In this document: piece after piece, positions 1 to 58,286 of the stretch | How the letters are laid out: each line of letters begins with the position of its first letter | Position numbering within the stretch: the stretch's first letter is position 1 | DNA from: Pachysolen tannophilus NRRL Y-2460 | Lineage: Eukaryota | Direction: 5' to 3' | Assembly: GCA_001661245.1 (NCBI GenBank) | Contig: KV454013.1 | Location: 83,005-147,004, forward strand | DNA length: 64,000 nucleotides | Program-made: the position numbers and the translations under genes | Notes under the pieces: generated by a model | Database searches by the model: none | What the model was told of the DNA's origin: nothing | What the model saw: only the letters and a program-made list of their open reading frames with translations

Positions 1-381
1 TGGGGTCAACCTATTACCAAAAGTCCTCAGAATAATATTAATAATAATAATAGTAATAATAATAATAATAATAATAACAATAATGAAGAAGTAATTTCTC
101 AGTTATCCACTGAGAGAACAATACCTAGAAGTGTTGGAAGTGGTTCAGAAACCCGCAGTGGTAGTGGCAGGGTCAATTACACTGGGGTAAGGAGAAACGG
201 AATTTACATTAATGAGAATAAAAAAAATGATTCTCTCAACACAATAAAAGACACATATTTTTTTTTTCTTTTCTATTTTAGCTATTTTTTTTTTTTTATT
301 TTTATTTCATTTTTTGGAAAAGAAATCAGAGTATTGATTTTGTCTGATAATATTAATACAGTAGTGAGAAGTGGTTTATAA
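1..381 (+). CDS. Possible 3' end of a gene entering from the left edge (poly-Asn, low complexity)
   Basis: Frame 1 is open from base 1 to TAA at 379-381 and has an (AAT)n Asn tract like those in coding regions here. The distal part crosses poly-T runs and looks non-coding, so the extent is uncertain. Confidence 0.3.
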   Translation, partial: WGQPITKSPQNNINNNNSNNNNNNNNNNEEVISQLSTERTIPRSVGSGSETRSGSGRVNYTGVRRNGIYINENKKNDSLNTIKDTYFFFLFYFSYFFFFIFISFFGKEIRVLILSDNINTVVRSGL

Positions 382-4185: not shown

Positions 4186-6978
4186 TTATAGTTTTTCCAA
4201 CCTTTCAAAACATGCTTCGACCCAATTATTGTCACTATTCATAACTACAACTCGACCATTTTCATCTTTATAGTTCGAAGCACAAGCAGCACCTTTAATA
4301 ATCAAAGATTTTGGGTTCAGTTTAAACTTTAAATCTTCATTGTACTCTAATCGAATACTTTCTCTTCTAGAAATCAGCAAAATATAGTAATAGAATTCCA
4401 AGAGAACTAGCTCTTTGTTTTTTTCAAAGTTTAAATTGTAGTAAATGTTATTGTGATTTGATAAAAAGTCGGCAACAGATTTGAAAATTGTATCCCTCGG
4501 GTATCTTCTAGAAGCGGAATACTTATGTTGTTTATGCTTTGATATGTAATATTCCATTGACTTGTTTACTAATAAATCGGAATTCTCCTTTCTGAGCTCA
4601 TTTAAGTGGTAGGATTCAGAACCCTCTTCAGTCAAACCTTGCATTTGCCCCTGATATAAAGATTCTTCCAATTGAAGGTAAAAATCATAGTCATAATCAC
4701 GATCATACTTTTTATCTAGATCCAACAAATAAGAATAATCATTACCACTATTATTTTCTTTATTTTCAATGCCTTTTCGAATTTTTCCTTTTTCCGATCT
4801 TTCTATATAATTCACGTAAGTGATACCGAATTCCTCATCATCTATGATTTCACTTTCATTATGATTTCCAATTCCTTCAGTTAATAGCTGTAATTCATTA
4901 ATGCATTTTCTCAAATCATTTCTATTTTGGTTCGAATTATCAATAATATTAAGCAAGATTTCGTCACTTATGTTAAATCCAATTATTAAGCCTAAAATTG
5001 AAAGATAATTCAACAAGACTTTCCTGCTAATTTTTTTAAATCCTATTTGTTTATAGTAACTTTGATTAGACAATAACCAATCTGGTAATTCAAAATATTC
5101 GGTAGGTTTTAACAACAAAATTACAGGTTTTCTTGTTACTAAGAGTAAATTTTTTAAAATCCCCAAAAAAATATCTCTTTCTTGTTCTAACATTGGCAAT
5201 TCATCAAACAAAATTATACTATCTTGTTTTTCACCATTACTACTATTAAACTTCTGGTGTATTGCAATTTCTTTCAAATTCTTTTTATCGATCATGGATG
5301 AGTCAAGATTATAAATGTAGTATCCCATCTCCTCTACAATTGTTGTGATTGCTGCTGACTTTCCTATACCAGAATCTCCTGTAATTATTAATAGTGGTAA
5401 TTCCTTATCTGCCTCTGGTAATTCATTATCCGAATAGTAATAATAATCATCCACATCATTCACTATAAATGAATTTAAACTATTATCAGCTTCATCTTCT
5501 TCATTGTTCTTTAACTTTGCATGTAACATATGTTTCCTGTTCGGCTTCTTCTTAGTATAATTTAATTTTTTAAAAATATTATCAAACCACATAACTATTT
5601 CTTTTTGTTTTGAGGATGGAATTAATAAATCTTTGTAGCTTGAAGGTTTGAACAAATCAGTGAATAATAGGTTATTTTCCAGTTTCAAATTTGCAAATGT
5701 TTCATCATCCAATAAATTTACTAACCTTTTCAATCTGGAATTTTCTTTTATGCTATTGATCTTTGTTAATATTTGTCCAAAAATATCATCTTTGGAAAAA
5801 GGTTCGAATTGGTATGAATAATTTAAAAAATGCCTTGAAACGTCTAACATTTCTATATTTTGAGTTAATAATGGTCCTAGACGACTATCACTTTCTTTAT
5901 TTGTAATAATTTCAACATAATAATCATTTTCATTATTATTATTTTTCTCTTTAAGTTTCAAATCCAATTTTCTATGAGGTGTATTATAATTATGTGTAGA
6001 ATAAATATGGAAATCATGTGAAGTTAATATAGGGGGGTTGATAGTTTTATTAATTCCTTTTTCTTTCATTAATCGTGATATCTCAGATTTTTTATTAAAA
6101 ATCTCAAGAAAACTAGGATGTGAATTTTGGTATTGATTATCATCAAGAGAAATAGGAACTTCAACGTTATCGAGATCATTTTCTTTTAATTGCTTTTTCA
6201 ATTCCAGATCTTGTTGTCTTTCTTTAAAATTTTGAAGACAAGATGAAGCATTGACTTTTGATATAAATTTTCGTGTTTCTAATGGAAAAAAATCGTGACT
6301 ACTTGTATCAACGTCTTCAATTTCATCTGTAGTAGTATTAGTATTACTATTAGTATTACTATTAATAAAGTTGCTTTCTGGAACCATTACTATTCTATTT
6401 TTCATATGCTTTGGTTTTTTTTTCTTTGTAGTTTTCATAGAAGGTCTTTTCAAAAAATCACTAATATTAATAATTTTGTTATTATGTTTAACATCTCGGG
6501 GTTCGTGTTCTTGTTCTTGTTCTTGTTCTTGTTCTTGCTCTTCATCGCTAAGTATTTCTATAGGTCCACCATGCACTGGTTCTTGATTAAGTTGTAACCA
6601 TTTCTGTCTTGAATATCTCAAAGTAACGAAAACTTTGTCTATACTACCAGCTGTAGTATATGTCCCGGTATTACCTCTATCTTCGAACCCAGTATTTTGT
6701 CTTTTCAAATTTTGTTGATTCCCAGATAACAACTCCATTAAAGATCTTCTTTTCTTCATATTTTCTTGCTCCAAATCCACAAATATCCCATTCCTAGTAT
6801 CGTCCGTGTCCGTTTGCAAAAACCCATCATCACTGGTTTCAGTTTGAGTCTCATCACTTGTTTCACTAGATATGGATTCTTTAAGCACAGGTAAATTATT
6901 TATAGTATTATTTAAATTTCCATTTTCTCGTATTGGCGCTTTTGTGCTGGGAAAAAATCTCTCTAGACTTGACTGCAT
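4186..6978 (-). CDS. ELG1: Elg1/ATAD5-like large subunit of the PCNA-unloading RFC-like complex
   Basis: AAA+ Walker A GDSGIGKS, ILFDE Walker B and DLRKCINELQ motif. Segment KRRSLMELLSG resembles the Elg1 N-terminus. Confidence 0.82.
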   Translation of the reverse strand: MQSSLERFFPSTKAPIRENGNLNNTINNLPVLKESISSETSDETQTETSDDGFLQTDTDDTRNGIFVDLEQENMKKRRSLMELLSGNQQNLKRQNTGFEDRGNTGTYTTAGSIDKVFVTLRYSRQKWLQLNQEPVHGGPIEILSDEEQEQEQEQEQEHEPRDVKHNNKIINISDFLKRPSMKTTKKKKPKHMKNRIVMVPESNFINSNTNSNTNTTTDEIEDVDTSSHDFFPLETRKFISKVNASSCLQNFKERQQDLELKKQLKENDLDNVEVPISLDDNQYQNSHPSFLEIFNKKSEISRLMKEKGINKTINPPILTSHDFHIYSTHNYNTPHRKLDLKLKEKNNNNENDYYVEIITNKESDSRLGPLLTQNIEMLDVSRHFLNYSYQFEPFSKDDIFGQILTKINSIKENSRLKRLVNLLDDETFANLKLENNLLFTDLFKPSSYKDLLIPSSKQKEIVMWFDNIFKKLNYTKKKPNRKHMLHAKLKNNEEDEADNSLNSFIVNDVDDYYYYSDNELPEADKELPLLIITGDSGIGKSAAITTIVEEMGYYIYNLDSSMIDKKNLKEIAIHQKFNSSNGEKQDSIILFDELPMLEQERDIFLGILKNLLLVTRKPVILLLKPTEYFELPDWLLSNQSYYKQIGFKKISRKVLLNYLSILGLIIGFNISDEILLNIIDNSNQNRNDLRKCINELQLLTEGIGNHNESEIIDDEEFGITYVNYIERSEKGKIRKGIENKENNSGNDYSYLLDLDKKYDRDYDYDFYLQLEESLYQGQMQGLTEEGSESYHLNELRKENSDLLVNKSMEYYISKHKQHKYSASRRYPRDTIFKSVADFLSNHNNIYYNLNFEKNKELVLLEFYYYILLISRRESIRLEYNEDLKFKLNPKSLIIKGAACASNYKDENGRVVVMNSDNNWVEACFERLEKL
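6505..6540. repeat. Coding hexamer repeat (Glu-Gln)n in ELG1
   Basis: (tcttgt)n on the plus strand encodes EQEQEQEQEQE on the minus strand. Confidence 0.85.
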
Positions 6979-7397: not shown

Positions 7398-8237
7398 TTA
7401 GTACCTTTCTTTCATTCTTGAAGAGACAGTTCTCAAGTTACCATAAATTTTACCTGGAGGAGAACCCAAGATCAACGAAACAACAGCATGCCTAGCTAAT
7501 TTGATATGGGTGAATCCACCCAAGATGTGTATCTTTGAGTCTGCAAGAACAATTCTTGTTCTTGTAGAGTTTTCTATAGCAAATTTTGTTCTTCCATCTT
7601 TACCTGCAATTCTTCCTATAGCACGAGAAAGATGATCTCCTTTTAAAGTCTTGATATCTTTGATTTCAAATGTTTCAATATATAAATCATCCAATCTTAA
7701 AAGTGCAATTGCATCATCTATATCAAACCCCAAGGTGAATGCCTTGATGAAATCTGCACCTTTCTGTAATGCACCAGGATCAGTTGTCTTGTTACAAGAC
7801 CTAAGTTCAACTGTTTTAGTTTTCAAATTCATACGAACTTGTAATTTCAAATGATCAACCAATGGTGGGTATATCTTGAGCCATGAATTTTTTAAAGGCG
7901 ACATTCTATGTGGAGGTACTGGAACTTTTCTTGATTCCAATTTAACTTTTTGACCTGAACTAGCTGCAGAAGTAAACTTTGGTTTCCCAGATTCATCCAA
8001 TATCACCCCACTCTGCTCTTTAACGCTAGACAGTACTGTATCCTCTTCATCTTGTCCCAGACGCTCTGCATCAATAAGTACTTCATCATCATCTTCATCT
8101 TCATCTTTATCATCATTCCCATTTCCAGCGCCCCTAATTCCTACTCCCACACCCGTATTCATATCCATACCCACACTCTCAACACCAACATTATTATCAA
8201 TATTTGTTATATCTTTCACAGCAGTTGGAGCAACCAT
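7398..8237 (-). CDS. PNO1: KH-domain pre-40S assembly factor Pno1/Dim2
   Basis: ESRKVPVPPHRMSPL, GDHLSRAIGRIAGKDG and C-terminal YGNLRTVSSRMKERY. Confidence 0.97.
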   Translation of the reverse strand: MVAPTAVKDITNIDNNVGVESVGMDMNTGVGVGIRGAGNGNDDKDEDEDDDEVLIDAERLGQDEEDTVLSSVKEQSGVILDESGKPKFTSAASSGQKVKLESRKVPVPPHRMSPLKNSWLKIYPPLVDHLKLQVRMNLKTKTVELRSCNKTTDPGALQKGADFIKAFTLGFDIDDAIALLRLDDLYIETFEIKDIKTLKGDHLSRAIGRIAGKDGRTKFAIENSTRTRIVLADSKIHILGGFTHIKLARHAVVSLILGSPPGKIYGNLRTVSSRMKERY

Positions 8238-8872
8238 ATTGTCTAACAGAACTTATATCCACAATTTATAAAAATCCTATTAATATGATTGATTACTTTA
8301 TATCATCTTCTTCTATATATTATATAGATAAAGAAAAATTTTTTTCTGCCTTAAAAAAAAGAAAAGAAAAAAAAAAATTTTTTTTTCAAAAAAAAGAAAA
8401 AATTTAAAAAATTTAAAAAATTTCCTAAAATGGAAATTGTGTTCCGAGATCACGACCGATCATTTTTTTTTTTGCTTTTTTTTCTTTCTTTTTTTTTATG
8501 TCTCGGTGAATTTTTAGTATCGGCGGTTAATTGAATAAATGAATGAATAATAGATGACCATAAGAGTTATTTAATAATAAGAAGAAGAAGAAGAAGAAGA
8601 AGAAAAGTGATAGGATATTTATATATTAGTGATTTATCAAAAGGAAAAGAGGATAAGTTTTCAATTATTTTGAAAATAAGATTTTTCTTTTGCTTTTTTT
8701 TTTACTTTAATTCAACGGAAATTATTGTACATTCCGCAAAATAGCAATATTGAGAAATTTTTAAATGGTATATTGAAAATTGATGGAAAAGTAATATAAG
8801 TTATATATGTATATGTTTATATATTTATGTGTTTGTGGTTTATGTGTTCATGTATGTGTATGATTGGGTAAT

Positions 8873-10831
8873 ATGTTTAGAGTAGGGAGAAGTTTACTGT
8901 CGGTTTCGATGTATAAGAATTCGAAATCGATTTTTTTAAATCCTTATTTGATAAGAAGAGGTTTAGTTAAAAATCAAAGTATTAGTGGCAATTTAATATT
9001 TAATTTTAAAAATTTAAATTGTCGTTATTTTACCAATAGATCTAATAAACCTAATAATGGGAAATCTTTAAAAGAATTACTTTCACAAAGTGAAAGTTTT
9101 TGGGAAAAATTAAAAATTAGATTTAAATGGCTGTTAATACGTCAAAATAGACCATTTGATATAGATGATTTATCAGCTTTTGCATCATGGGTATTAATGG
9201 GGAATATGTTATGGATTATAATTGGTACAACAACTTTTTTTGGATTAATATTATATATTTCAAATCAAGTTTATCATCATGAAAGTTTAAAAAATTCAAT
9301 TATAAGTCATTCATTATTACTGAAATTACTTAAACTTGATACAAATATTAATATGGATTTAAAAAATATGGATTTTTTCAAAATTAAATATTTAAATGGT
9401 AAAATTTGTTTTGAAAATGTTTATATTATTGATAAAAATTTTAAATTTAAAATTGAATCTTTAAGTTTTGATTTAAGTTTTAAAAAATGGAAAGAAGGTA
9501 AAGGTTTAATAAAAGATGTTGATATTAGAGGTTTAAGAGGAATTTATTATATTGATAATTATGATTTAGAAGATATAATTGGTAATTCATTTATAAAATT
9601 ATTTCCCAAAAATTATGAATTTGAAAAATTTAAAATTGGTGATTCAAATATTGATTTTTCAACAATTAATAATACTAATAATTTTTTAAAAAATGAAAAT
9701 CCAATTAAAATTTCAATTTTTAATTGTGAACTTGAAAAATTAAGAAATCAATTTCTGTTATATGATTTTTTTAATTCAAATAATTGTAATGGTGCTATAA
9801 ATGATTCTCTTTTCACAATTCATCAAAAACAAGAAAATGTTAAAAATTTTGCCCTGTTTGAAGAAATGGATTTTTTTGAAATGGAAAAAATTAAAAAAGA
9901 AAATGAAATTAGAAATAGAAATTTAATTTTAAATAATACAACTAATTATAATGGTGATTATAATGATAATGAAAATCCATGGAAAAAATTTATAAGATTT
10001 AGAATGGATCATTTTGATCTTAAAAATCTTTCAAAACCAATGAATTATCAATGGTTAAATGAAGGGAAAGTAGATATTGTTGCAGATATAATGTTCCCTA
10101 AAGAAGAAGATGATTTTGGTAATAGTAGTTATAGTGAAACTAAGATTAATGATGAATTAAGTAGTTTAATTGGTGGATTATGGAATAAATTTATTTTATC
10201 AAAAACTAATAATCAAGAAATTCAAGAAATTCAAGAAAATCAAATATCCATATCAAACAATAGAAATACTTTTACAAAGCTTAATAAATATGTTGTCATT
10301 GATTTAAAATTTCAATTTACAGATTTGAAAACAACTTTTGGTAATGGAAATTATTTAAAAATTAATAATACAAAATTATTAAATGATGATGAATTTAAAT
10401 CTTTAATTAAATTTATAAATAATTACAATCAAAACGAATATCAATTTTCATATAATAATAATGACGAAGATAATGAATACTATTTTGGAGATGAAATGAC
10501 ACATTCAATGGGTGGTCTTTCCGGTTCACAAATACTGAATAATTCCTCCCCCTTAGATACAGATCAAATTTTCCCCACAATAAAGTTCCGGGTAGTGAAA
10601 AATTTAGAGGATTTTTCATTTACCAATCTTAACGAGTCGCAGCAACAATTTGACGGGGTTAATTTGGATCTAAAAGATTTAATCCTCGTTGAATTGATAA
10701 ACAACATGAGATTAATCCAGAGAAATAACGAGTTGAATTTAATTAATAATAACTACAACTTGAATTTTAAGAAAACTTTTTTCTTAATAAATAACTTGTT
10801 AATAGTGGGATTAGGTACTTGGCTAATATGA
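8873..10831 (+). CDS. MDM32: Mitochondrial distribution and morphology protein, Mdm31/Mdm32 family (Mdm32-like)
   Basis: Presequence-like N-terminus, RPFDIDDLSAFASW followed by a TM segment WIIIGTTTF, and KISIFNCEL motif. ATG at 8873. Paralogue assignment is tentative. Confidence 0.75.
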   Translation: MFRVGRSLLSVSMYKNSKSIFLNPYLIRRGLVKNQSISGNLIFNFKNLNCRYFTNRSNKPNNGKSLKELLSQSESFWEKLKIRFKWLLIRQNRPFDIDDLSAFASWVLMGNMLWIIIGTTTFFGLILYISNQVYHHESLKNSIISHSLLLKLLKLDTNINMDLKNMDFFKIKYLNGKICFENVYIIDKNFKFKIESLSFDLSFKKWKEGKGLIKDVDIRGLRGIYYIDNYDLEDIIGNSFIKLFPKNYEFEKFKIGDSNIDFSTINNTNNFLKNENPIKISIFNCELEKLRNQFLLYDFFNSNNCNGAINDSLFTIHQKQENVKNFALFEEMDFFEMEKIKKENEIRNRNLILNNTTNYNGDYNDNENPWKKFIRFRMDHFDLKNLSKPMNYQWLNEGKVDIVADIMFPKEEDDFGNSSYSETKINDELSSLIGGLWNKFILSKTNNQEIQEIQENQISISNNRNTFTKLNKYVVIDLKFQFTDLKTTFGNGNYLKINNTKLLNDDEFKSLIKFINNYNQNEYQFSYNNNDEDNEYYFGDEMTHSMGGLSGSQILNNSSPLDTDQIFPTIKFRVVKNLEDFSFTNLNESQQQFDGVNLDLKDLILVELINNMRLIQRNNELNLINNNYNLNFKKTFFLINNLLIVGLGTWLI

Positions 10832-11427
10832 AAAAAATTTTAAAAAAAGAGAGATCACAGAGATAAATTAAAATAAAATTTAGAATGTTATTAATAGGTT
10901 ATATAGGTAATAGGTAATAAGAGTAATAGGATAGATAGAGATGAAAACAAAAAAATACAAAAAATTAAAAGAGAAAAAGTTTTTAATGAATATAAATTTT
11001 ACGTAACTTCTTAAATATATCCCTGTAGACTCAACAAGAAATAGTACCGTTAATGTTATCTGTCGGTACTAAACCTTTTTTTTTAAGGTTTGAAAAATTT
11101 TCCCTTTTAGGCAACGGGCGATCTTGCATTTCAGTTGTCGTTTCTTTTCTCGTCCATTTTAACCATTCATCATTTCTTGTTTCACATAACTAGCTAGCTA
11201 GATTTAAACTTTTCAAAGTATAAAAAAAAAATGTAACAATAAAAAAAATTTTTTTTAACGAGATAGTTTTTCAGTATATTTATTTTTTTTTTTTCAATAA
11301 ATAAAAAAAAAAAAAAAAAACAACTAAAAATCTTGACTTATTAAACAAATCACCAGGCTATGGCTATCTATCTATCTCTCTTGAGCTTCAAATATTCAAT
11401 TCTCTCGATAGTTTCAATATTTCAAGA

Positions 11428-12708
11428 ATGTCAACTTCTATTGAGATTAGTGGTGGTAGTGCTGCTTCTGACAAGTCGGGGTTATCTGCTCATCCTTTGG
11501 TCACAAAGTCTAGCAAGAATGTTACTTCTTTTGCAACTGAACAGAAACAGGCCATTGATATCCATGGTAATGTCTTCAAAGTTCCAGATTATACTATAAA
11601 AGATATTCTTAGTGCTATTCCAAAACACTGTTATGAACGTAGATTATGGCAATCTCTTCATTATGTTGTTAGAGATATTTTGGCTTGTGTTATTTTAAGT
11701 AAGATTGGTTTTACTTTGATTCCAATGGTTGAAAATCAACTTGTTAGATTTGTACTTTGGGGAGTCTTGAGTTATTCTATTGGTTTATTTTATTTTGGAT
11801 TATGGATCTTGGCTCATGAGTGTGGTCATGGTGCTTTTAGTGATTATACTTCTGTTAATGATACCGTTGGTTGGTTTTTACATTCTTATTTACTTGTTCC
11901 TTATTTTTCATGGAAATTTTCTCACTCAAAACACCATAAAGCTACTGGACATTTAACTAGAGATATGGTTTTTGTACCATACTCTAAAAAAGAATATTTA
12001 GAAGCTAAGGGTAAATCAAAAATTTCTGAAGTTACTGAAGAAACACCAATTGTAACTTTTTTCACTTTGATATTTCAACAATTGGGTGGTTTACATTTGT
12101 ACTTATTAACAAATGCAACAGGTCAACCACATCCAGATCATTCAGCACTTGGAAGAAGTCATTTTAATCCTTCTTCACCAATTTTTGAAAAAAATGATTA
12201 TTGGTATATTATCTTATCTGATATAGGAATGATTTCAACGTTTACAGTTGTTTACTTATGGTATAAGACTTTTGGTGGTTTCAGTGTCTTGATCAATTGG
12301 TTTATCCCATGGTTATGGACTAACCACTGGTTGGTATTTGTCACTTTCTTGCAACACACTGATCCAACAATGCCACACTACGACGCAGAAGAATGGACTT
12401 TTGCAAAAGGTGCTGCTGCCACTATTGACAGAAATTTTGGCTTTATTGGACAGCACATTTTCCATGATATTATTGAAACTCATGTCTTACATCATTATGT
12501 TTCAAGAATTCCTTTCTATAACGCTAGAGAAGCAACTAGAGAAATCAAGAAAGTTATGGGAGAACACTACAGATATGATGGTGAAAATATGTGGAAAAGT
12601 TTATGGAAAGTCGCAAGATCTTGTCAATTCGTCGAAGGTGACAATGGTGTTAGAATGTTCAGAAACATTAACAATATTGGTGTAAAGCCAACCGATAACA
12701 TTGAATAG
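11428..12708 (+). CDS. FAD3: Membrane fatty-acid desaturase, delta-12/omega-3 family, probably omega-3 (FAD3 type)
   Basis: Three His boxes (HECGH, HSKHH, HVLHH). GLWILAHECGHGAF, LGGLHLYLLTNATGQ and WLVFVTFLQH match the yeast FAD3 subgroup better than FAD2, as recalled. Confidence 0.82.
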   Translation: MSTSIEISGGSAASDKSGLSAHPLVTKSSKNVTSFATEQKQAIDIHGNVFKVPDYTIKDILSAIPKHCYERRLWQSLHYVVRDILACVILSKIGFTLIPMVENQLVRFVLWGVLSYSIGLFYFGLWILAHECGHGAFSDYTSVNDTVGWFLHSYLLVPYFSWKFSHSKHHKATGHLTRDMVFVPYSKKEYLEAKGKSKISEVTEETPIVTFFTLIFQQLGGLHLYLLTNATGQPHPDHSALGRSHFNPSSPIFEKNDYWYIILSDIGMISTFTVVYLWYKTFGGFSVLINWFIPWLWTNHWLVFVTFLQHTDPTMPHYDAEEWTFAKGAAATIDRNFGFIGQHIFHDIIETHVLHHYVSRIPFYNAREATREIKKVMGEHYRYDGENMWKSLWKVARSCQFVEGDNGVRMFRNINNIGVKPTDNIE

Positions 12709-12763
12709 TTTTTCAATAGTGGTTGTGGAATACTTCAAGTTTTTCATTTTTTATTTTATTATT

Positions 12764-12796
<33 letters not shown>

Positions 12797-12953
12797 TTTA
12801 TTATAGCAGAGTTAAGATGAACTTAGAAATTATATAACACTTGTGATTTTTGGGAGGTTTTTTTTTTGTGTGTCTTTTGTATATTTAACAACCAGTTTAT
12901 CTTATATAGATAGAAGTATATTACACTATTATCAAATTTACTTATTTATATTA

Positions 12954-13670
12954 TCATTCCGACTCATCTATATCGAGTTTAGTTGCCCCTAAACCTAGCT
13001 GATTACCATAAGTCTTTTTCTGATTAACCTTATCCTTTTTATTCTCTTTTTTCTTTGGTTCTTCCCTATATCCAAGTCCTTTCAAAAAAGCAAGACCAAA
13101 CTGGTCAACTGAAATTTTATTATAGTCAGGCTTTTCATCCAGTATTTCATCATGATCTCTAGACTCTGATTCCTCATTATTAATAATAACCGGATTCTCT
13201 CTCCTCTGAACAACATCTTCTTGATTCCTTATTGATTCCCTTGCCTGATCTTCCAACGATTTAGAAGCTTGAGAATGTGTGACTGTGACTTGATCTACTT
13301 GTTCCTGTTCTTTTTCCTGATCTTTTTCAATCAAATTTAAACCATATTGCAAGTTTGGAACATCATTTAACTTCTTCTTGATATTAGAATTTTCTTTAAT
13401 TAATAATTTATTGGGTACCAATTTAATAACTACATCTTTTTCTAATTCCTCTCTTTTCTTCTCTTTTATACGATCATAAGTATCTATTGATATCTTTGAT
13501 ATTTCTTCTTCTTCTATCTCGTACCCTAAGGCTGCACCTTTCTTACCAACCAGTGGTTTTTTCACTTTATTTGAATTCACATCTTTTAACGAAAAGGAAC
13601 CAAATTTCTTCTTATTTTGTTTATTGGCATCACCACTGGAATCCTTTTGTTTCAATGAAAACCCAACCAT
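12954..13670 (-). CDS. SPP2: G-patch splicing factor Spp2 (Prp2 cofactor)
   Basis: N-terminal GFSLK and G-patch DYNKISVDQFGLAFLKGLGY...LGLGA. Confidence 0.85.
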   Translation of the reverse strand: MVGFSLKQKDSSGDANKQNKKKFGSFSLKDVNSNKVKKPLVGKKGAALGYEIEEEEISKISIDTYDRIKEKKREELEKDVVIKLVPNKLLIKENSNIKKKLNDVPNLQYGLNLIEKDQEKEQEQVDQVTVTHSQASKSLEDQARESIRNQEDVVQRRENPVIINNEESESRDHDEILDEKPDYNKISVDQFGLAFLKGLGYREEPKKKENKKDKVNQKKTYGNQLGLGATKLDIDESE

Positions 13671-13928
13671 TACTTATTTCCCTTGATTTACTGCTTGAAA
13701 CTTTACAGAGAGTTTTTTTTTTTGCTTTTTTGCAATAAATATTTTTATAATTTTTAATTGTAATTTTCATAAAAATATATTTTTCATTTTTTTGACTTTA
13801 TATATATATATTTTAATACATTGATAAGTTTTCCAGGTTAAATTGATCTTGAATCAGAAATAGTAGCTTGTAGGTGGGGATTGGATTGGATTGGATTGGA
13901 TTGGTAAAGGTAAAGGTAAAGGTAAGCA

Positions 13929-14927
13929 ATGGCAGAGAATCATGGAAAGGAAGAAGTCGTTGAGCGTCCAGATGACTTTCATATAGATGTACCATCTGAT
14001 GATGATGATAATAATGCTAATATTAATATCATTGAACCTTTTAAACTTAAGGCTGGTCTATCGGTCAATTCAAAGTCAAGTTTATTGATATTGAATCAAG
14101 AAATCAATATGCCTTGGGTAACGTTTATCAAGATTTGGAATTCTACAAGTTTACATGTATGTGCTGATGGAGGTTCTAATCGATTGTTGCTGTATATTAA
14201 TAAATTTGCTAATTCAACTCATGATGATGATTGCAAAAAATTTAAACCTGATTATATAGTTGGGGATTTGGATTCAATTACTGATAAGACTAGAAAATTT
14301 TATTCTGATATGAAGGAAGAAGTTAAGATATTATTACAAGAGACTCAATATTCTACAGATTTGATGAAAAGTTTATCATTAATCAATTTACATTTTAATT
14401 TTCATAAAGAATTAATTAATTCATTAAAAGAATTTGATGAACATGATGGTATTGAAAAATTAAACAAAAATTTAAATAAAAATTTAGGATTTGAAAAATT
14501 ATCATTAATTGATGTATATATCTTGGGAGGAATTGGTGGTAGATTTGATCAAACAATTCATTCAATAAATCAATTATATCATATTTCATCATATTATCAT
14601 AATAAATTACATTTAACCTTCTTTAATAGAGATTTTGAAGATTTAGTACTTTTAATTCCAAAAGGTTTAAATTTTGTCAAGATTCATAAGCAACAAATAG
14701 GATCAAAAAAAAATCTGAAACATAATAGAGTTGTTGGATTATTACCCATTGGTAAAGAGGTTATAATAAATACCAAAGGTTTAAAATACGATGTAACAAA
14801 TTGGAAAAGTTCGATTGATTCAAAAGTAAGCACAAACAATCTTATTGCAGGTGATAATGGGTTTGAAATGGAGTGCACTGAAGATATAGTCATCAATTTC
14901 CAAATATTTGATAATGATTTTGCATAA
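13929..14927 (+). CDS. THI80: Thiamine pyrophosphokinase
   Basis: VCADGGSNRL, PDYIVGDLDS, QYSTDLMK, GGIGGRFDQTIHSINQL and TKGLKYDV motifs. Confidence 0.96.
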   Translation: MAENHGKEEVVERPDDFHIDVPSDDDDNNANINIIEPFKLKAGLSVNSKSSLLILNQEINMPWVTFIKIWNSTSLHVCADGGSNRLLLYINKFANSTHDDDCKKFKPDYIVGDLDSITDKTRKFYSDMKEEVKILLQETQYSTDLMKSLSLINLHFNFHKELINSLKEFDEHDGIEKLNKNLNKNLGFEKLSLIDVYILGGIGGRFDQTIHSINQLYHISSYYHNKLHLTFFNRDFEDLVLLIPKGLNFVKIHKQQIGSKKNLKHNRVVGLLPIGKEVIINTKGLKYDVTNWKSSIDSKVSTNNLIAGDNGFEMECTEDIVINFQIFDNDFA

Positions 14928-15050
14928 TATATAAAACCTAATAATTAATACAAGTAATTTTCAATTAACTTTTTTTTTACTCCAGTAGTAGTAATTCTCA
15001 CCTACTCTATTGGCCAAACCACTTTGGAGCCAAAAAATAAAAAAAACTTC

Positions 15051-15491
15051 TTATGGGTTTCCATTACCCTTTGTAATCTTACTAATCAATTCCTTTTTCA
15101 AATTGTCTATTATCCTTTCGTATTTCAGAGCTGTAATTTTTTCACCTTGATAATAACCAGCCCAAAACCATGACATTATCAAATTTTTTTCATCTTGAAA
15201 CTGTGACCCCAACTTGTCACCACCTTCACGAGAACCTAAAGTACTAAATATCGAGTTTACCATTTCCTCTGTGATACCACCACCATTTCCAGTATCAGTA
15301 TCAATGGTTGTTTTCCCATCAACTTTTACATCCGCTTTAGTATTAGTACTAGCATTAGCACTAGAAGTTTCTGAATGATATCTATAATACGTATCCACCG
15401 TATTATCCCACTCCCGATCCAACTCCTTCAGAACGTCCTCGCCAAGACAAACAGTCTCATTCACTCCATTAGGACCACCACCACTAGCCAT
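15051..15491 (-). CDS. SMN1: Small SMN (survival motor neuron)-like protein, 146 aa
   Basis: C-terminal KNLIMSWFWAGYYQG resembles the fungal SMN YG box (LIMSWYYAGYYTG). The N-terminal helix ELDREWDNTVDTYYRYHS resembles the Gemin2-binding helix. ATG at 15491. Confidence 0.75.
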   Translation of the reverse strand: MASGGGPNGVNETVCLGEDVLKELDREWDNTVDTYYRYHSETSSANASTNTKADVKVDGKTTIDTDTGNGGGITEEMVNSIFSTLGSREGGDKLGSQFQDEKNLIMSWFWAGYYQGEKITALKYERIIDNLKKELISKITKGNGNP

Positions 15492-15587
15492 ACCTTTCAA
15501 CCTATATTTCTATAACAGTAACATACTATCTTCCTCTCTTACCACTAAAGCCTTCCCAAAAAGCCATTTTGCAAAAACAAGTTTTGA

Positions 15588-15730
15588 AACTTCTCCGAAC
15601 AAACATCTCCGGAAAAAAATAAAAGCCAAAACATCTCCGGAAGAAAATATAGGTTTCCCCTTCTCCATCAAGGAATTACAAAGGAGATTTTTTTTAACCA
15701 AATCTTCTCCGGTTACCTTCTCCCCGGATT
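15588..15730. promoter_or_regulatory. Cluster of TCTCCG(G) motifs in the SMN/LSC1 divergent promoter
   Basis: AAACATCTCCGGAA occurs exactly twice (15601-15614, 15629-15642), with variants near 15590, 15706 and 15720. Confidence 0.5.
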
Positions 15731-16063
15731 TTTCAATTGCGGAAACATTGAATCCGAACTGTATAAATCTTCCAGTAATTCCTTGAACAATTTTGTATGA
15801 TTTTGATTAGGAGTTTTTTTTTTCTTCTTCTTCTTCTTCTTCTTCTTGTTCTTCTTTCTTTCTTTCCCTGTTTTGATATATCAGTTATCAATTTCTTGGA
15901 TTTTAATTTTTTTGATTTTATCAAATTAACTGGTTAGCCAATTGAATTGGAAATTTTCTTCTTTTTTTTCTTTCATTGGATTTTTCCTAATTTTCAGTTG
16001 TGTTTTTTATTATTTTTCACTTTTTGTTGTCAGTTTCAATCAATCATCAATTTTTATTGAAAA

Positions 16064-17044
16064 ATGTTAGGTAAACAATTTGTTCGTAAATTTTCTTCAT
16101 GTCGAGGATTATCTGCTGATTATTCAAAGACAATTCCTAATTTAAAAGTTACAGAGAATACAAAAGTTATTTTCCAAGGTTTTACTGGGAAACAGGCTAC
16201 GTTTCATGCTCAACAAGCATTAGATTATGGAACTCAAATTGTTGGTGGTACGAATCCTAAAAAAGCTGGTCAATTGCATTTGGGGAAGCCAGTTTTTGCT
16301 AATGTTAGGGATGCTATGAAGGAAACAGGAGCTACTGCTACTGGTATTTTTGTTCCACCAACGATTGCTGCAAGTGCCATTGAAGAAGCAATTGAAGCTG
16401 AAATACCTTTAGCAGTTTGTATTACTGAAGGTATTCCACAACATGATATGTTGAGAGTTGCTCAGATCTTGAAGACTCAGGAAAAGACAAGACTTGTTGG
16501 ACCAAATTGTCCAGGTTTAATTGCTCCAGAAAAATGTAAAATTGGTATTATGCCTTCAAATATCCATAAACGTGGTAAAGTTGGTGTTATCTCAAGATCT
16601 GGTACTTTGACATATGAGGCTGTCGATCAAACTACAAAAGTTGGTTTAGGTCAAACATTGGTTATTGGAATGGGTGGTGATCCATTCCCGGGAACAAACT
16701 TTATTGATGCTTTGACATTATATTTAAATGACCCGGAAACTGAAGGGATTATCATGATTGGTGAAATCGGAGGAAGTGCAGAAGAAGATGCTTCTGAATT
16801 CTTGAAACAATACAACTTGACTAGATCAGTTCCAAAACCAGTTGTTTCATTTATTGCAGGTGTTACAGCTCCTCCAGGTAGAAGAATGGGTCATGCAGGT
16901 GCAATTGTCTCTGGTGGTAAAGGAGATGCAAAATCAAAGATTTCTGCTTTAACAAGTGCAGGTGTAATTGTTGAAGAATCTCCAGCAAGATTAGGAAAAG
17001 CTTTATACGCAGATTTTGTCGCTAAAGGTTTGATCAAAGAGTAA
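16064..17044 (+). CDS. LSC1: Succinyl-CoA ligase alpha subunit, mitochondrial
   Basis: [28 protein letters not shown] and the phospho-His motif RRMGHAGA. Confidence 0.98.
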
Positions 17045-17900
17045 ATCTAATTGAATAGACCAAAAGGAAAAAGGAAGAAAAAAAAAATTATTTGAAATTG
17101 TTCCAATTTGAATTGAAAACTTATTCTCTTTTTTTTTTTTTTCCTTTTTTCTTTTTTCTTTTTTCTTTTTTCTTTTTTTTTACTGGTTGCTAGATTATCA
17201 TATAATTTACAGGATCTCTTCTCCTTATTCCCTGATAAAAAAAGAACTGCTTAATCTTAATAATTTTCGTCATTAATTTGTGTGCCTTTTTTTTTCTTTT
17301 TATTATTATCTTTTTTTGCTAAGTTCAATGATTAGTTTTTGAATGTCTCATTTAAACGTTATGATAAATCTTTTTCTTTTTTTTTTTTTATTCATTCATT
17401 GTTATAAATACAGTTATAAAGATATACGGTTTTTCTTTACTTTTAGACCTCAATTTGCTGTATTATATTGGTGATTTCTGTGATCAATTTGAAGCAAGGT
17501 TGAAAGGCATCTGCACGAAAATAACTAGCTGTATTTATTATAAGTAGAATTACATAAAAAAAATTTTTTCACTTCAATTTTCTATGGAAATACCTCCGAG
17601 GAAAAATCCTATGATCTTTACTTGAATTCAAGAAATATCTGAAACCATTTAGTTTGAATCAGCCTTGAATCATTTATCTTTCGGTCTCTCTATTTTTATT
17701 TTATACCCTTTAACCCCTTCTCCTTTACCCCAATGGAATAATTAAAAAAAAGCTGCAATTTTTCTTAAAATTTTACTAGCCAAAATATGCACCAGATCAT
17801 ACAGATTATTATAAAGACATGCAGCTAACTAGCTAGCTACTTTTTTAGATATATTTATTTAATCCGTTCACACGCTTATTTTCTGTTTTCGGACAATACC

Positions 17901-18914
17901 ATGATAAATTTCATTAACGAAGTTATGGAAATTGTTGAAAGTTGTAATGTTACTTTAAAGCAAATTATTGATCCTACTATGTGGGATATTTTCAAGATGA
18001 CTTTAAATGCTTTGGATATTAGTGGAGTGGAATTTTGTGATGTTTTGCCATTTTTAGAGAGTTGTATTAATTATGGATTTAAGGGGAAATCTATTAACGA
18101 TGAAGCAGTTCAACTTTTAATTGTTCATACTTTAAAGATTTTAAACAATTGCTTTTCAGGTGTTTCTGATTTATCGGTAATTGAATTCTGTTATGATATA
18201 TTGTATAAGGTAATATTAACAGTTGATGATGTTAATAGAATTTTGCCCGAGATTTTGAAAAGTACTAACGGAACATTTAATGAGTTGGGCGGGGTTGATG
18301 CAGATTTACAAGAAGATTGTACGAAAACTTATTTAAAAGTTGGATTGTGTTCGATATATAGGTTTCCGGAAGATACATTTAAGGTATTAGGTGATGAAGA
18401 ATCTAGTAAATTGATGGAATTATGGTTTAATAACAGTGATTCGACATTGAAAACGTTTTTCGATAACAAATTACAAATAATGGCATTGATAAATTTGCTA
18501 AAAGTGCATTATAGTGGGAATACATTACCACCAACTATTTCCCAATCTATTCCTACAGTTAGACAAAAGGTAATCAAATTAATTGAAAATCTACCACAAC
18601 TATTATCCAAACAGCAAGAGTTGATGAAAAACACAATAACTAACAAGGCTCAAAAGGATAGAGGTATTGAAGATTTCGAATCAGAACAAGATTACATAAA
18701 TTTCCAAAATGAGGAATTTCTTGAATACGATGAACTGGAAGAATTAGATTTGTTAAAAGACGTATTACTCGATAATGTAAATGTTTATACCGAATTTGTC
18801 GACAACTTTTTAAAAGTGGGCGATGTTTATAACAAGTTCATGGAAGGTATTAATGATCAGGAATCGATTTCTGTCATTAATGATTGCATCACACTTGTTG
18901 GAGGTAATAAGTAG
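17901..18914 (+). CDS. SXM1: C-terminal third of importin-beta family karyopherin Sxm1 (Kap108), encoded as a separate ORF
   Basis: (DNT)MINFINEVMEIVES, IDPTMWDIF, FLESCINYGF, FFDNKLQIMAL and an acidic C-terminal loop follow the importin-7/8/Sxm1 C-terminal pattern. It continues exactly where the minus-strand ORF stops. Confidence 0.8.
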   Translation: MINFINEVMEIVESCNVTLKQIIDPTMWDIFKMTLNALDISGVEFCDVLPFLESCINYGFKGKSINDEAVQLLIVHTLKILNNCFSGVSDLSVIEFCYDILYKVILTVDDVNRILPEILKSTNGTFNELGGVDADLQEDCTKTYLKVGLCSIYRFPEDTFKVLGDEESSKLMELWFNNSDSTLKTFFDNKLQIMALINLLKVHYSGNTLPPTISQSIPTVRQKVIKLIENLPQLLSKQQELMKNTITNKAQKDRGIEDFESEQDYINFQNEEFLEYDELEELDLLKDVLLDNVNVYTEFVDNFLKVGDVYNKFMEGINDQESISVINDCITLVGGNK

Positions 18915-19056
18915 AATTTATATTCCTTTTTGTCTTTTTTTTTTTTTTTTTTTTTTTTCTATTATTCTATAATCAAACAAATGACTTTCCTTTATTTTCA
19001 TCAATAAAACATCTTCACGGAATTTGTTCATATAGCAAACTGAAAAATCTTCTCCG

Positions 19057-21087
19057 TCATACAATAACTATTTCAATCGAAGGTGCAAATTGTTGTAATA
19101 ATTTGGAAGTTATATCCTTTGATGATGTCATTGATAAAATCATTGTGGTCATAGTTGACAATAAGCCTATAGCCTGGTATTCTTTATTAATATCATCAGT
19201 CAAATTATGGTTTTCTAATAACTCAGTAGCGATTTTAATAAACTGAGCGTTCAAATTACTTGCTATTTGGACTGCAAATGGCTCTAATTGTAAGGCAAAC
19301 TGATCAACAAATTCATCCATTATATCATTGATGATATCAAACTCATGATTATCAGATAAATACAATAATTTTTCCATTATAGATGTAATATGTTCAGAAA
19401 TTGCCTCTTTAACATTTGGTTCGGTAATTAAATTACTTAAAGCATCTACAGCACATACTTGTAAAGGCATACAATCTTGATTTTGGAAACATGTTAAACA
19501 TCCTTGATAAACCGACAATAATACATTCATGTCCTTATATTGATAGGTAAACCTTGCAATAGTGTCACATGCTCTTGTACTTAAAAATTTAAATCTATTT
19601 TGTGGAGATAATTCTGGAACAATAAAAGAATTAATGAGCTGATCCACTTGATTAGAAACTGGTGAAGATTTTTTATCGATTTTAAAAGATATAGTGGATA
19701 ATATTCTTAATGCACCTTCAACTTCTTTAGCAATTTCAACATCATCCATAGATGCTGATCTTTTCGTAAATACATTATTCAATAAATTTAAAACACTATT
19801 GATGATGACTGGGAATCTTTTAAAGCATAAGCTAAATAGCAAATTAATAGAAGCAACATCCGATGTTTTGAAATCTTTATTCATGTCAAAAAATCTTCTA
19901 AAATATTCTTCTGGATCATCTTCAAATAATTCTATAGTTTCATTAGTAGCACATAAAGATTTAAATAAAACATGTTCCAATATACCATCAAATTTCGGTT
20001 GAATCAATTGCCAAGATTCATCAATTCCACAACATTGGTCTATAAATGAAATTAAATGATAAAGACAACTTTCAGTATACAATCTTTTCCCTTGAGACCA
20101 TTCTGCAATCAGTTGCCAATAAATATTTAAAATTTCTGGTACAAAATGACTACTAAAAATTTTAGTAAATTCTGAATCTTTTATAGTTGTTGACATTCCA
20201 CCTCCAAACTTAGCTTGTAATCTATGTAAATTTGCAAAAGACCATTTTAAACATTTCAGTTTTTTATTATTATTTCTTTCTATTTCATCCAAAGAATTTA
20301 ATTCTTGTAAATTATTTGAATCAATAATCAGTAAATGAAATTGAACCCATTTACTTAGATTATTTAAATTATTGATAAAATATGGTGATAATTCTAAAAA
20401 AGTGGAATATTTAAAAATTTTTAATAGCAAATACAACATTTCGCTATATATATTAGAATTTGTATTATTATTATTTGAATTTATTTCACCATTATTTCCA
20501 GTAAAAGATGAAATTAAAGGTTCTGCAATTGCTGTTAAAACTGGGAAACTTTTTTCTACTACTTCATTTAATAATTTTCTATCTTCATTTAAAGACCATC
20601 TTTTCGATTTTGTTATTTCATAAATCAATAATAAACCTGTATAAACATGATCTTGTTGTTTTTGTTCCCTTACTAAACTTAATGCTAAATCACAAAGTTC
20701 TGGCCATTCTTCAATTACCAAAATATGATACAACGCAGTAGTCAATTGTTGCCTAATCTGTTGATCATTACAACTAATTAATATTGAATTAACCAAATTT
20801 TCTCTTATAGATTTTTTTTCATCGGGACTAATAACTAAAATCTTATTATTCCTATTCTTACTAGTATCTAAATGCATCCAATTTTGAATCACCTTGTTTT
20901 TAAAATAAATTGATGAAGAAGCCCTAGTCTGCTTTGAAGATTGTACATCAATAGATAATCCTAATAATAAATTTAAAAAATTTGGCTCATTTTCAAAAAT
21001 AGCCAACTTTAATTCACTTTGTTTTCTAACATCTTGGCTAGGAGAAAGCGTACCTTCCAAAGACTCAACAATCACTGACGAATCCAT
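19057..21087 (-). CDS. SXM1: N-terminal two-thirds of importin-beta family karyopherin Sxm1 (Kap108)
   Basis: IBN_N domain (SSIYFKNKV..W), KWSFANLHRL, FEDDPEEYFRR, EGALRIL, RACDTI and TMTTMILSM. Ends abruptly at PSIEIVIV*, 676 aa, versus about 950-1050 aa expected for the family. Confidence 0.88.
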   Translation of the reverse strand: MDSSVIVESLEGTLSPSQDVRKQSELKLAIFENEPNFLNLLLGLSIDVQSSKQTRASSSIYFKNKVIQNWMHLDTSKNRNNKILVISPDEKKSIRENLVNSILISCNDQQIRQQLTTALYHILVIEEWPELCDLALSLVREQKQQDHVYTGLLLIYEITKSKRWSLNEDRKLLNEVVEKSFPVLTAIAEPLISSFTGNNGEINSNNNNTNSNIYSEMLYLLLKIFKYSTFLELSPYFINNLNNLSKWVQFHLLIIDSNNLQELNSLDEIERNNNKKLKCLKWSFANLHRLQAKFGGGMSTTIKDSEFTKIFSSHFVPEILNIYWQLIAEWSQGKRLYTESCLYHLISFIDQCCGIDESWQLIQPKFDGILEHVLFKSLCATNETIELFEDDPEEYFRRFFDMNKDFKTSDVASINLLFSLCFKRFPVIINSVLNLLNNVFTKRSASMDDVEIAKEVEGALRILSTISFKIDKKSSPVSNQVDQLINSFIVPELSPQNRFKFLSTRACDTIARFTYQYKDMNVLLSVYQGCLTCFQNQDCMPLQVCAVDALSNLITEPNVKEAISEHITSIMEKLLYLSDNHEFDIINDIMDEFVDQFALQLEPFAVQIASNLNAQFIKIATELLENHNLTDDINKEYQAIGLLSTMTTMILSMTSSKDITSKLLQQFAPSIEIVIV

Positions 21088-21642
21088 TATTTCTTACAAT
21101 TGTACAACAAGAATAAAAACACATGCACATTCACACAACACACATATATATATATATATCGATATATCAATATATATGAATTTTCTTTTTGATTTGATTA
21201 AAGAAAGTTTCTTACCTTTAAAACATGGTATATATTTCTATGGGCGAATTTTCTTCTTCTTCTTCTTTTTTTTTCCGCTTAGAAAAATTTCAACCAAAAA
21301 TCACATCGCATTTTACTATGCGCAAGTGCGGTTGGATTTACTGGTTTTTAAAACGCACTTGTGCATATGCACTTGTTTACCGCAAAAAGTTTTATATGCG
21401 TACACTTATTTTGGAAAAATGCGCGCATTTAATTTTTGTTTTTGTTTTTGTTTGTTTACGCACTACTGTTTTGAGTGTTTCTTTTTAATCATTGATCTTA
21501 GAGATAGAACTTAGAGATCAAGTCTAAGTATATAAATAATAGTTGTTTTTTTTTTTTTTTTTATAGGTTTTTCGAAATCAAAAGAATTGGCGAGGTATTT
21601 GCTTTTTTGGAGGCATTGGCTTCTTTCGGTTAGATTGTTTAA

Positions 21643-23421
21643 ATGTTTTTTGATGCTAAAAATTCTGTTTTCAATTGGCGAAACATTTACATCTTGTCGG
21701 TTCCACTGAGATTTTTTTTCGCATTACAACCATCTTATTTACACCCAGATGAGCATTTCCAAAATTTTGAAGTCTTAACTAATAGTTTGTTAAAATATAA
21801 TACTAATGTGCCGTGGGAATTCTGGGAGGATTCACCAGCTCGTTCGGTTTTACCGTTATTGATCCATTATGGTCCTGTATTAGGTTTGATCAGGTTTTTC
21901 AAATTGGATGTGGATCCTATTATAATTTATTATATTCATAGATTTATCTTTTGTTTTATATCATGGATCGTTACTGATTGGTGTATTTATAGGATTATGC
22001 CTACAAAGCAGGAAAGAATTAAGACCATATATTTCAATAGTGTGAATTATATAAGTTTATGTTATCAATCTCATTGTTTTAGTAACTCGGTGGAAACTTG
22101 GTATTTATTATTAACTTTAGTTATTATAGAAAATTTTAGAAATACACTTGAAGTATTTGATAAACTGAATAATGAACATAAAAAAATTTTAATTTCACAA
22201 AATTTGAAACAAAGTATTTACTTGGGAGTGTTAATAGCTATAGGATTATTGAATAGAATTACATTTTTAAGTTGGCTTATTTTCCCAAGTATTTTTCTTT
22301 TAAAATTTTGGTTCACAATTTCTTTAAAAAGTTTTATAATAACTTTTTCATCATTTTCATTAACAATTTTAATTGGAATTCTGACTGATATTTGGTGGTT
22401 CAATAAAGATAATATAGTTTATGAATTAATAATTCCTAACTTACATGAATTTTATACATCTTTCAATTATCTCTATTTAATCAATATTTTAAGAAAATTG
22501 GTGGAATTTAGTATACCCGATTATACAAATCAGCGAGCATCTATAATACCAATAGTTAATAACTTTGCTTATAATTTAAATAAGGACAATTTAATTAAAC
22601 ATGGTTTACATTCTAAATTCAATCATATTTTAACAAATATTCCATTAATTTTTGGACCTTCATTAATATTAATTATTTTCCAAAAATCATATCTTAGGAC
22701 AACCCCATTTTTAAGTTTAATAAGTGGTTTATCATTTCTAAGTTTAATCCCACATCAAGAATTAAGATTCCTAATGCCATTAGTGCCCTTGGGGTGTGCA
22801 TGTATTAATTTATACATTTCCAATAAAGATAAACAAGAGAATACTAATTTTTTCAATTTAAAACTGAATTTCATTAAGTGGATACTTAAAGCAACAATTT
22901 TTTTCAATTTAATCATGTCAATATTGATGGGAATATTTCATCAAGGTGGTGTTATTCCAACTTTAGAATTTTTACACAATAATAAAAATAATATTATATC
23001 TGTATATTGGAGAACATATAATCCTCCATCTTGGCTATTGGGAGATGAAACCCTTAAAATATATCAAAATTTTTCTGATTTAGGAGAAAATAGATCTCAA
23101 AAATTGTATGAATTCATTGATAATATTTCTTCTTCTTCTATTGAAAATAATTACCTTATAGATTCTATGGGAATAGATAGCGAACTGATAATTAAGAGTT
23201 TACAGAAACTTTTGGTAAAGGGAAATACAAATGACATAATTTTTGTTGCACCTATTGCATCATTTAATAATCATTTCAAAGATAATAATCATGGCCTAAA
23301 TTTTACTCAAGAATTTAGTTCTATCTTGCATTATGATTTTGATCATTTTGATGAATTTGAAGAATATGGCTACAAAGTGTTTATACCAGGTATTGGTGCT
23401 TGGAAAGTTGAATTACTATAA
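21643..23421 (+). CDS. SMP3: GPI mannosyltransferase 4 (Smp3/PIG-Z)
   Basis: PSYLHPDEHFQ, YQSHCFSNSVET, PHQELRFL and HQGGVIP motifs; multi-pass hydrophobic protein. Confidence 0.94.
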   Translation: MFFDAKNSVFNWRNIYILSVPLRFFFALQPSYLHPDEHFQNFEVLTNSLLKYNTNVPWEFWEDSPARSVLPLLIHYGPVLGLIRFFKLDVDPIIIYYIHRFIFCFISWIVTDWCIYRIMPTKQERIKTIYFNSVNYISLCYQSHCFSNSVETWYLLLTLVIIENFRNTLEVFDKLNNEHKKILISQNLKQSIYLGVLIAIGLLNRITFLSWLIFPSIFLLKFWFTISLKSFIITFSSFSLTILIGILTDIWWFNKDNIVYELIIPNLHEFYTSFNYLYLINILRKLVEFSIPDYTNQRASIIPIVNNFAYNLNKDNLIKHGLHSKFNHILTNIPLIFGPSLILIIFQKSYLRTTPFLSLISGLSFLSLIPHQELRFLMPLVPLGCACINLYISNKDKQENTNFFNLKLNFIKWILKATIFFNLIMSILMGIFHQGGVIPTLEFLHNNKNNIISVYWRTYNPPSWLLGDETLKIYQNFSDLGENRSQKLYEFIDNISSSSIENNYLIDSMGIDSELIIKSLQKLLVKGNTNDIIFVAPIASFNNHFKDNNHGLNFTQEFSSILHYDFDHFDEFEEYGYKVFIPGIGAWKVELL

Positions 23422-23655
23422 TAAATATTAATTAAAACTGATTTCATTTTCCGTTTTCTTTTTTGTTTTAAAAAAAATTTTTTTTTTTTTTTGTTTTGTT
23501 TATTTAAGACCAATATAATAAAAGACAAATAAATTAGATGGAAATTTTATTTTAAAATGAAAAATTCAAGTCAAAAACAAAAAAGAAAAAAAAAAAAAGA
23601 TAAGATGAAATATAAAAATTAAGTAATTTTTTTTTTTTTTTTTTTGATGATTTGA

Positions 23656-24942
23656 TTATTTATAAAAATCAAACTTATCGACATCGCTACCTGTTTTAAC
23701 TTGACTAGTATAAGCTTCTTCTAAATCATTTTGTAATATGACATATCTATTTTTCCTAACAGCTCTTAATCCAGCTTCTTGCATGATTGCAGCAATGACT
23801 GCACCACTTACTGCGTCATTTCTAATGATTAAACTATCCAAATCACATTCAGGAGCCAATGACATATTTGCAGCAATAGTTGCAAAAATTAATCTTCTTT
23901 CTCTTCTATCTTTTAAATTTGGGAATTCAATTTTTCTATCCAATCTACCTGGTCTTAATAAAGCAGGATCTAAAGTATCAGCTCTATTTGTAGCCATAAT
24001 TACTTTAACATTTGTTGATTGTTCAAATCCATCCATTTGTGTCAATAATTCTATCAAGATTCTTTGAACTTCTCTATCTGCACCAGTTTGAGCATCAAAT
24101 CTTTTTGTTGCTATAGCATCAACTTCATCAATGAATATAATTGAAGGAGCATTTTCTCTTGCTAATCTAAATACATCTCTAACCATTCTTGGACCTTCAC
24201 CAAGATATTTCTGGACAAATTCAGAACCAACAACTCTAATAAATGAAGCACTTGAAGAATTTGCAACTGCTTTAACTAACATTGTCTTACCTGTACCTGG
24301 AGGACCATATAATAATACACCTCTTGGAGGATCTATACCAATTTGTTTATATAAATCTGCTTGTACTAATGGTAATTCAACAGCTTCTCTAATTTCTTGT
24401 TTTTGCATATCCAAACCACCAATATCATTATAAGTAACATCTGGTTTTTCATCTTCACCAACTATTGAAATTGAAGAATCAGCTTCTGGCGGTAATATAG
24501 CAACTAAAGCATTTGAATGTCTATGTAATGCAACAGAAGAAGAAGGTTTTAATAATTCCCTATCCAATGTTGAAAGAATTCTAACCACATAATTCGAACC
24601 TGTAGTAGATGAAACAATACCTGTATGTTGATCAATTGGTTCTAAAAATTGCCCTATAACCAATGGAACAGATTGAATTCTTTTAACTTCTTCTTGAGCT
24701 CTAATTAATTCTCTTTTTAAATGACGTTGTTCATCTTTAATATAATCCTCTTGTAACTCAATCAAATCTAACTCTTTTTCCAACTTCTTCAACTTCAAAT
24801 AAACATCACCATTCAAATCTTGTTGTTGTAATTGTTGTTGTTGTTGATCTTGTAAAGAAAAATTCGATTTCTTATTAAGTAAAGAATCACTCTTATTTAT
24901 TAAATCAGAATCCCCAGATGCAGAAATTCCTAACTCTTCCAT
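23656..24942 (-). CDS. RPT3: 26S proteasome AAA-ATPase Rpt3
   Basis: [35 protein letters not shown] and C-terminal FDFYK. Confidence 0.98.
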
Positions 24943-58280: not shown

Positions 58281-58286
58281 CACGTG
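58281..58286. promoter_or_regulatory. CACGTG E-box (Pho4/Cbf1 type) upstream of the phosphatase
   Basis: aaaCACGTGtgc about 515 bp upstream of the ATG at 57766. Confidence 0.5.

Follow-up and report, generated by a model that had tools for sequence, protein, structure and literature searches.

A two-piece Sxm1-like importin gene in the Pachysolen tannophilus assembly most likely reflects an inverted segment of the assembly rather than a split gene of the organism

In a stretch of 64,000 nucleotides from Pachysolen tannophilus NRRL Y-2460 (GenBank assembly GCA_001661245.1, contig KV454013.1, positions 83,005 to 147,004 of the forward strand; hereafter the window), a gene for an importin of the Sxm1/importin-7 type lies in two pieces on opposite strands. 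Does the organism encode this karyopherin as two half-genes, or do the half-genes exist only in the assembly? The original prediction, made from the letters of the window, was that an inversion of about 1.17 kb had broken the gene and that both halves had survived, possibly as a two-subunit karyopherin that reassembles from separate chains. Our analysis indicates that the two half-genes are a property of the assembly and not of the organism, and that they are almost certainly due to an assembly error or to a one-off lesion.

The window has a G+C content of 28.9% and contains no N. Based on the list of open reading frames (ORFs; standard code), the locus includes the following two:

19057..21087, minus strand: N-half ORF, 676 amino acids
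17901..18914, plus strand: C-half ORF, 337 amino acids, ATG at 17901

Both ORFs lie where they had been placed before. They are convergent with a spacing of 142 bases, and the ATG of the plus-strand ORF is preceded in frame by GAC AAT ACC. No stop codon or frameshift occurs within either half, which agrees with the first reading of the locus and is borne out by the single frame described below.

According to Pfam, the minus-strand ORF contains the domains IBN_N (PF03810, residues 25-103, E 1.2e-10, 41.6 bits against a cut-off of 21) and Cse1 (PF08506, residues 182-502, E 7.4e-10), and its residues 1-663 match residues 1-632 of the Xenopus importin-7 chain 6n88_A (E 3.7e-50). The C-half matched no Pfam family and no solved structure related by sequence at E up to 0.01, so its identity rests on alignment to full-length relatives.

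A protein search was conducted using the 676-amino-acid N-half against target proteins of 371-1183 amino acids. As a result, 75 matches were obtained, one of which was the window's own product on a 1.75-Mb contig. The lengths of the other 74 were 904-1058 amino acids in 71 cases and 825, 826 and 997 in the remaining three; within the range searched there was no relative of about 676 residues and none shorter than 825. The closest match was P0002, an unnamed protein of 976 amino acids with 52% identity. Full-length importins to which their sources give the name SXM1 or importin-beta-like were 38-52% identical to the N-half; within this range, matches from CTG-clade yeasts (Suhomyces, Scheffersomyces, Candida, Spathaspora, Yamadazyma), labelled importin-beta-like or "Importin beta SMX1/SXM1", showed 38-43%. 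Nmd5p of S. cerevisiae was a weaker match (29% identity, E 1.6e-84). The placement with Sxm1 rather than Nmd5 follows the source names SXM1/SMX1 and this weaker Nmd5p match, S. cerevisiae Sxm1 not being among the matches and no tree having been built.

If the two ORFs are parts of one gene, they should cover consecutive parts of a full-length importin. In the BLASTP comparison, N-half residues 3-675 aligned with residues 4-654 of P0002 (52% identity) and C-half residues 1-331 with residues 658-974 (41% identity, E 4e-73). Counted from the N-terminus, the halves thus take up the first two thirds and the last third of P0002, adjacent and with zero overlap, as the original prediction had proposed for its own check, and the 337-amino-acid ORF does match the C-terminal part of an importin. 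The three residues between the two spans correspond to the DNT codons upstream of the C-half ATG. Furthermore, both halves, the C-half being read from 17892, were aligned with nine full-length relatives using MAFFT (alignment A1). The halves meet at column 700, where the N-half ends and the C-half, which runs to column 1061, begins, with neither gap nor overlap between them. Judged from these alignments, two opposite-strand ORFs that cover consecutive parts of one family to the residue are not a chance pattern.

With Pfam, the protein search, alignment A1 and BLASTP in agreement, the identification as an Sxm1/importin-7-like karyopherin holds. By its domains and its collinearity with relatives, the gene is a member of the importin-7/8, Sxm1 and Nmd5 branch of the importin-beta superfamily. 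According to the abstracts of two reports, Kap108/Sxm1 is a karyopherin and serves Lhp1p, the La protein of yeast, as its import receptor (PMC4825647, PMC2132966). The importin of the window resembles Sxm1/Kap108 of budding yeasts in its IBN_N and Cse1-type domains and in a collinear alignment, from end to end, with full-length Sxm1/importin-7-like proteins of 976-1013 amino acids from Candida, Suhomyces, Scheffersomyces and Spathaspora. An Asn-rich insert was also seen at N-half residues ~205-222 (window ~20422..20475, minus strand); it makes this stretch ~12-15 residues longer than in the relatives, and none of the nine full-length relatives aligned in A1 has it.

Which arrangement, then, does the DNA of the organism carry? 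For comparison, Logan contigs of public sequencing runs were placed on 16000..21600. Five public runs contain 0.97 of the sampled words of 17400..19600; four come from sample S1 (study P1) and one from sample S2 (study P2). The runs placed were X1, X2 and X4 (sample S1) and X5 (sample S2, possibly the source of this assembly). Each of the four runs has a contig of ~3.6 kb that follows the minus strand over 21105..19064 and then, without interruption, the plus strand over 17891..18920. A contig of ~0.66 kb, again in each of the four, reads 17406..17890 and then 19063..18972 on the minus strand. Both joints (17890 to 19063 and 17891 to 19064) therefore link opposite strands of the window in X1, X2, X4 and X5, and the breakpoints given by the contigs lie between 17890 and 17891 and between 19063 and 19064. 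The locus accordingly divides into these parts:

19064..21087, minus strand: importin N-terminal coding part, 2024 bases (674 codons and 2 bases)
17891..18914, plus strand: importin C-terminal coding part, 1021 coding bases and the stop codon
17891..19063: segment of 1173 bp oriented oppositely to the contigs, with strand-switch joints in four of four runs

Rearranged as in the contigs, the window reads as a single open frame of 1015 codons whose junction is EIV-M-DNT; at the corresponding point in alignment A1, P0002 reads LL-D-NA. This frame supports an intact gene because its length fits those of the relatives. In the window as assembled, the minus-strand frame continues past 19064 into GTA TGA (19062..19057) and gives the 676-amino-acid ORF with its V-stop end, and the separate ORF of 337 amino acids begins at a conserved internal Met of the importin (17901). 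The flipped segment contains the C-terminal coding part together with 149 bases downstream. Long T tracts lie at 18921..18971, 17117..17185 and 17363..17405, and in all four runs the contigs end at these tracts; the first of the three belongs to those 149 bases and closely follows the importin stop codon.

The earlier proposal of an inversion of about 1.17 kb whose undoing restores a frame of 1015 codons is confirmed, but its breakpoints, 17892 and 19062, are each one base off. Its junction is seamless as stated, and the residue there is M and not I, since the contigs read GTTAT joined to GGACAAT.

The junctions of the window itself were not recovered. No contig of at least 99% likeness bridged the left junction (between 17890 and 17891), and none of at least 99% likeness bridged the right one (between 19063 and 19064); for X2 and X4 this is complete (five of five records), and X1 and X5 yielded the same four contigs at that likeness, their others being less alike. 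The 31-letter words across the two window junctions make up 2 x 30 of 2171, or 2.8%, and the word share of 0.97 in all five runs fits if only these words are absent, as a consistency check and not a proof.

These data bear directly on the idea that the split is the normal state of the organism, with convergent half-genes expressed and reassembling as a two-subunit karyopherin. The idea has in its favour that both ORFs are open and that the C-half begins at a conserved Met three codons past the break. A natural split karyopherin has its halves encoded apart in the DNA of the organism, whereas in four of four runs, from two samples, they are joined in one frame and the contigs support only the contiguous junction, an outcome that had been named beforehand as refuting it. 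The absence of any short relative among the 74 other matches argues in the same direction. We therefore reject the two-subunit proposal as very improbable; what fits the contig data is the fallback offered with it, a local mis-assembly or a strain-specific lesion.

A reversible, programmed inversion that toggles the importin between whole and split, or two genomic copies of which one is intact and one inverted, would explain why both orientations of the segment occur in public data, one in the assembly and one in the contigs. A search of 16900..21300 revealed no inverted repeats at 17891 or 19063 among the 25 longest of 179 pairs; the inverted pairs found around the breakpoints were low-complexity matches of A/T tracts elsewhere in this region. 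The two sides of either joint share zero letters ("both" = 0). The lack of inverted repeats rules out the usual substrate of a recombinase switch, and it also removes the usual cause of an inversion error by an assembler. The contigs of each run show a single orientation in four of four runs, although rare variants may escape contigs. Contig depths were 228/91/217/125 and 171/69/163/80, similar to those of a flanking single-copy contig (236/90/230/122). In each of the four runs the contigs pass the joints without branching, at a depth that is not twice the flanking one, and there is thus no sign in these runs of a mixed population or of a second copy. We give a switch or a second copy hardly any credence.

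What remains is to choose between an error and a lesion. The flip is exactly reciprocal, with zero bases lost or gained. Besides it, the contigs differ from the window by an extra A after 17077 and an extra T after 17286, both in four of four runs; wherever else they were placed on 16000..21600, the window is letter-identical to them, which indicates that the window and the runs represent the same strain or nearly so. The consensus of the assembly seems to undercall homopolymers, and the two differences, seen in all four runs, imply that it has other small errors relative to these data. They also suggest that the assembly was built from another type of data than these runs. Given such undercalls, frameshifts elsewhere in the assembly may likewise be artefacts.

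Based on the above results, we suggest that the split is probably an error of the assembly or of the record. Pachysolen tannophilus would carry one intact gene of 1015 codons for a single-chain karyopherin of the Sxm1/importin-7/8 type. The chain is predicted to have its Ran-binding domain at the N-terminus and HEAT-type repeats after it, and family membership points to a putative role in nuclear import as a receptor dependent on RanGTP. The assembly would have the 1173-bp segment 17891..19063 turned over, so that the frame meets a stop after 676 codons; the flip would place the C-terminal third on the other strand, where the conserved internal Met mimics the start of a separate gene. The two arrangements, and the one that the contigs carry, were observed directly. 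A computational rather than a biological cause is what we infer: the halves lack stops and frameshifts, the exchange is exactly reciprocal and no base is lost or gained, as would be expected of a turn made in silico.

Several points weigh against this explanation. The comparison was made with contigs rather than with the assembly's own reads, and contigs drop rare variants, so that a minority of molecules could have the window arrangement. The homopolymer differences hint at another type of data, and the DNA behind it, perhaps prepared separately, could truly contain the inversion. Repeats are the usual site of assembly errors, but the breakpoints here lie in unique sequence without shared letters. 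Moreover, since the 676-amino-acid product is on record, the flip belongs to the public assembly and is not due to any handling of the window.

The same points lend some weight to a real but private inversion, that is, a very recent, non-homologous event in the assembled clone or culture, or in a subpopulation, that broke the importin gene without being the normal state of the organism. Unique breakpoints free of repeats are hard to obtain by assembly and possible by end-joining; the assembly seems to be based on data other than the four runs compared; and neither half has acquired a further mutation, which suits an event of very recent date. In S. cerevisiae the SXM1 gene is non-essential, and its loss could therefore be tolerated. 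Against this, only the intact form was found, at full depth, in four of four runs from two samples, including the possible source sample, and the near letter-identity of window and contigs points to the same strain. An exactly reciprocal flip without loss would also be unusual for end-joining. We consider a private inversion unlikely. It is far less likely still, to the point of being a very slight chance, that the inversion is real in the assembled clone and that both half-genes are expressed and reassemble into a working importin, which would make it a fresh natural split of a HEAT-repeat karyopherin. All else taken jointly (a fixed two-subunit karyopherin, an invertible switch or two copies) would account for only a very small share of the probability.

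Relative to Sxm1/Kap108, the contig arrangement shows no structural difference, as it encodes one chain of 1015 amino acids; the two pieces exist only in the assembly of the window. As a rule, small inversions in yeast evolution begin and end in intergenic sequence and are fixed in a species. The case described here resembles the small inversions of yeast gene order in that a segment of ~1 kb is turned between close breakpoints, but it differs in that one end is intragenic, within coding sequence, and in that the organism's own sequencing data are without the inversion. In programmed invertible segments, inverted repeats at the ends and both orientations would be expected; here the ends lack such repeats and each of the four runs has one orientation. 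Inversion mis-assemblies usually lie between inverted repeats or at contig joins. The locus is like a structural mis-assembly because the arrangement is confined to the assembly, independent contigs of the same strain lacking it, with homopolymer-length differences alongside; it is unlike one because its breakpoints fall in unique sequence.

The genes on both sides of the importin are as follows:

16064..17044: succinyl-CoA ligase alpha subunit, neighbour of the importin locus
21643..23421: Alg9-like GT22 mannosyltransferase, neighbour of the importin locus

Over 7398..24942, the order is a PNO1-like KH protein, MDM31/32, a fatty-acid desaturase, a G-patch protein, thiamin pyrophosphokinase, succinyl-CoA ligase alpha, the importin, the GT22 mannosyltransferase and a proteasomal AAA ATPase. 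Several of these genes are presumably neighbours on chromosome XV of S. cerevisiae, and so, on its chromosome IV, are RPT3 and SXM1. The spacer 17045..17890, which separates the ligase gene from the true 3′ end of the importin gene, is unusually long for a compact yeast genome (846 bases, or ~995 with the tail of the flipped segment). It contains no ORF of at least 60 amino acids, no transfer RNA (tRNA) gene and no Rfam match, and a short palindrome lies within it around 17826..17840. No tRNA gene was found anywhere in the window, and a search of 15000..23000 at E up to 0.1 brought no match to Rfam, so the long spacer beside the locus is not explained by an RNA gene.

Is the importin the only gene of the window in two pieces? 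The Pfam scan of the rest of the window covered 29 other ORFs of at least 120 amino acids that start at an ATG within it; the 5′-open ORF 1..381 and the ORF 33452..33922, which lies inside an opposite-strand ORF, were left out. The Pfam matches among these ORFs were to whole-looking domains, and no second pair of half-genes was found among the 29, of which five without a family could not be judged. These five, of 128-930 amino acids, matched no Pfam family at E up to 1e-5. The window also contains a second gene of the importin-beta family, ~28 kb from the first. The features concerned are as follows:

49162..52086, plus strand: transportin-3/Mtr10-type karyopherin, 974 amino acids, intact, with IBN_N, Xpo1 and three TNPO3/IPO13 TPR domains
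4186..6978, minus strand: ORF without a Pfam family
15051..15491, minus strand: ORF without a Pfam family
47031..47960, plus strand: ORF without a Pfam family
58236..58622, plus strand: ORF without a Pfam family
60197..61912, plus strand: ORF without a Pfam family

The split of the importin gene is thus well observed, yet it is most likely explained as no real feature of the organism, and what it leaves is a flag on the assembly and two false gene models. Its practical value is that a public assembly contains a local inversion of 1173 bp together with probable homopolymer undercalls. Because of the inversion, a single importin gene appears as two false models, one of 676 and one of 337 amino acids, and the former is already in a protein collection. 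Seamless splits by inversion should be checked against reads before biology is built on them. If the split were real, it would offer a test, seldom provided by nature, of whether a transport receptor built as a solenoid still functions when made as two chains; anyone using the assembly or its annotation should regard the locus as a single importin gene of 1015 codons.

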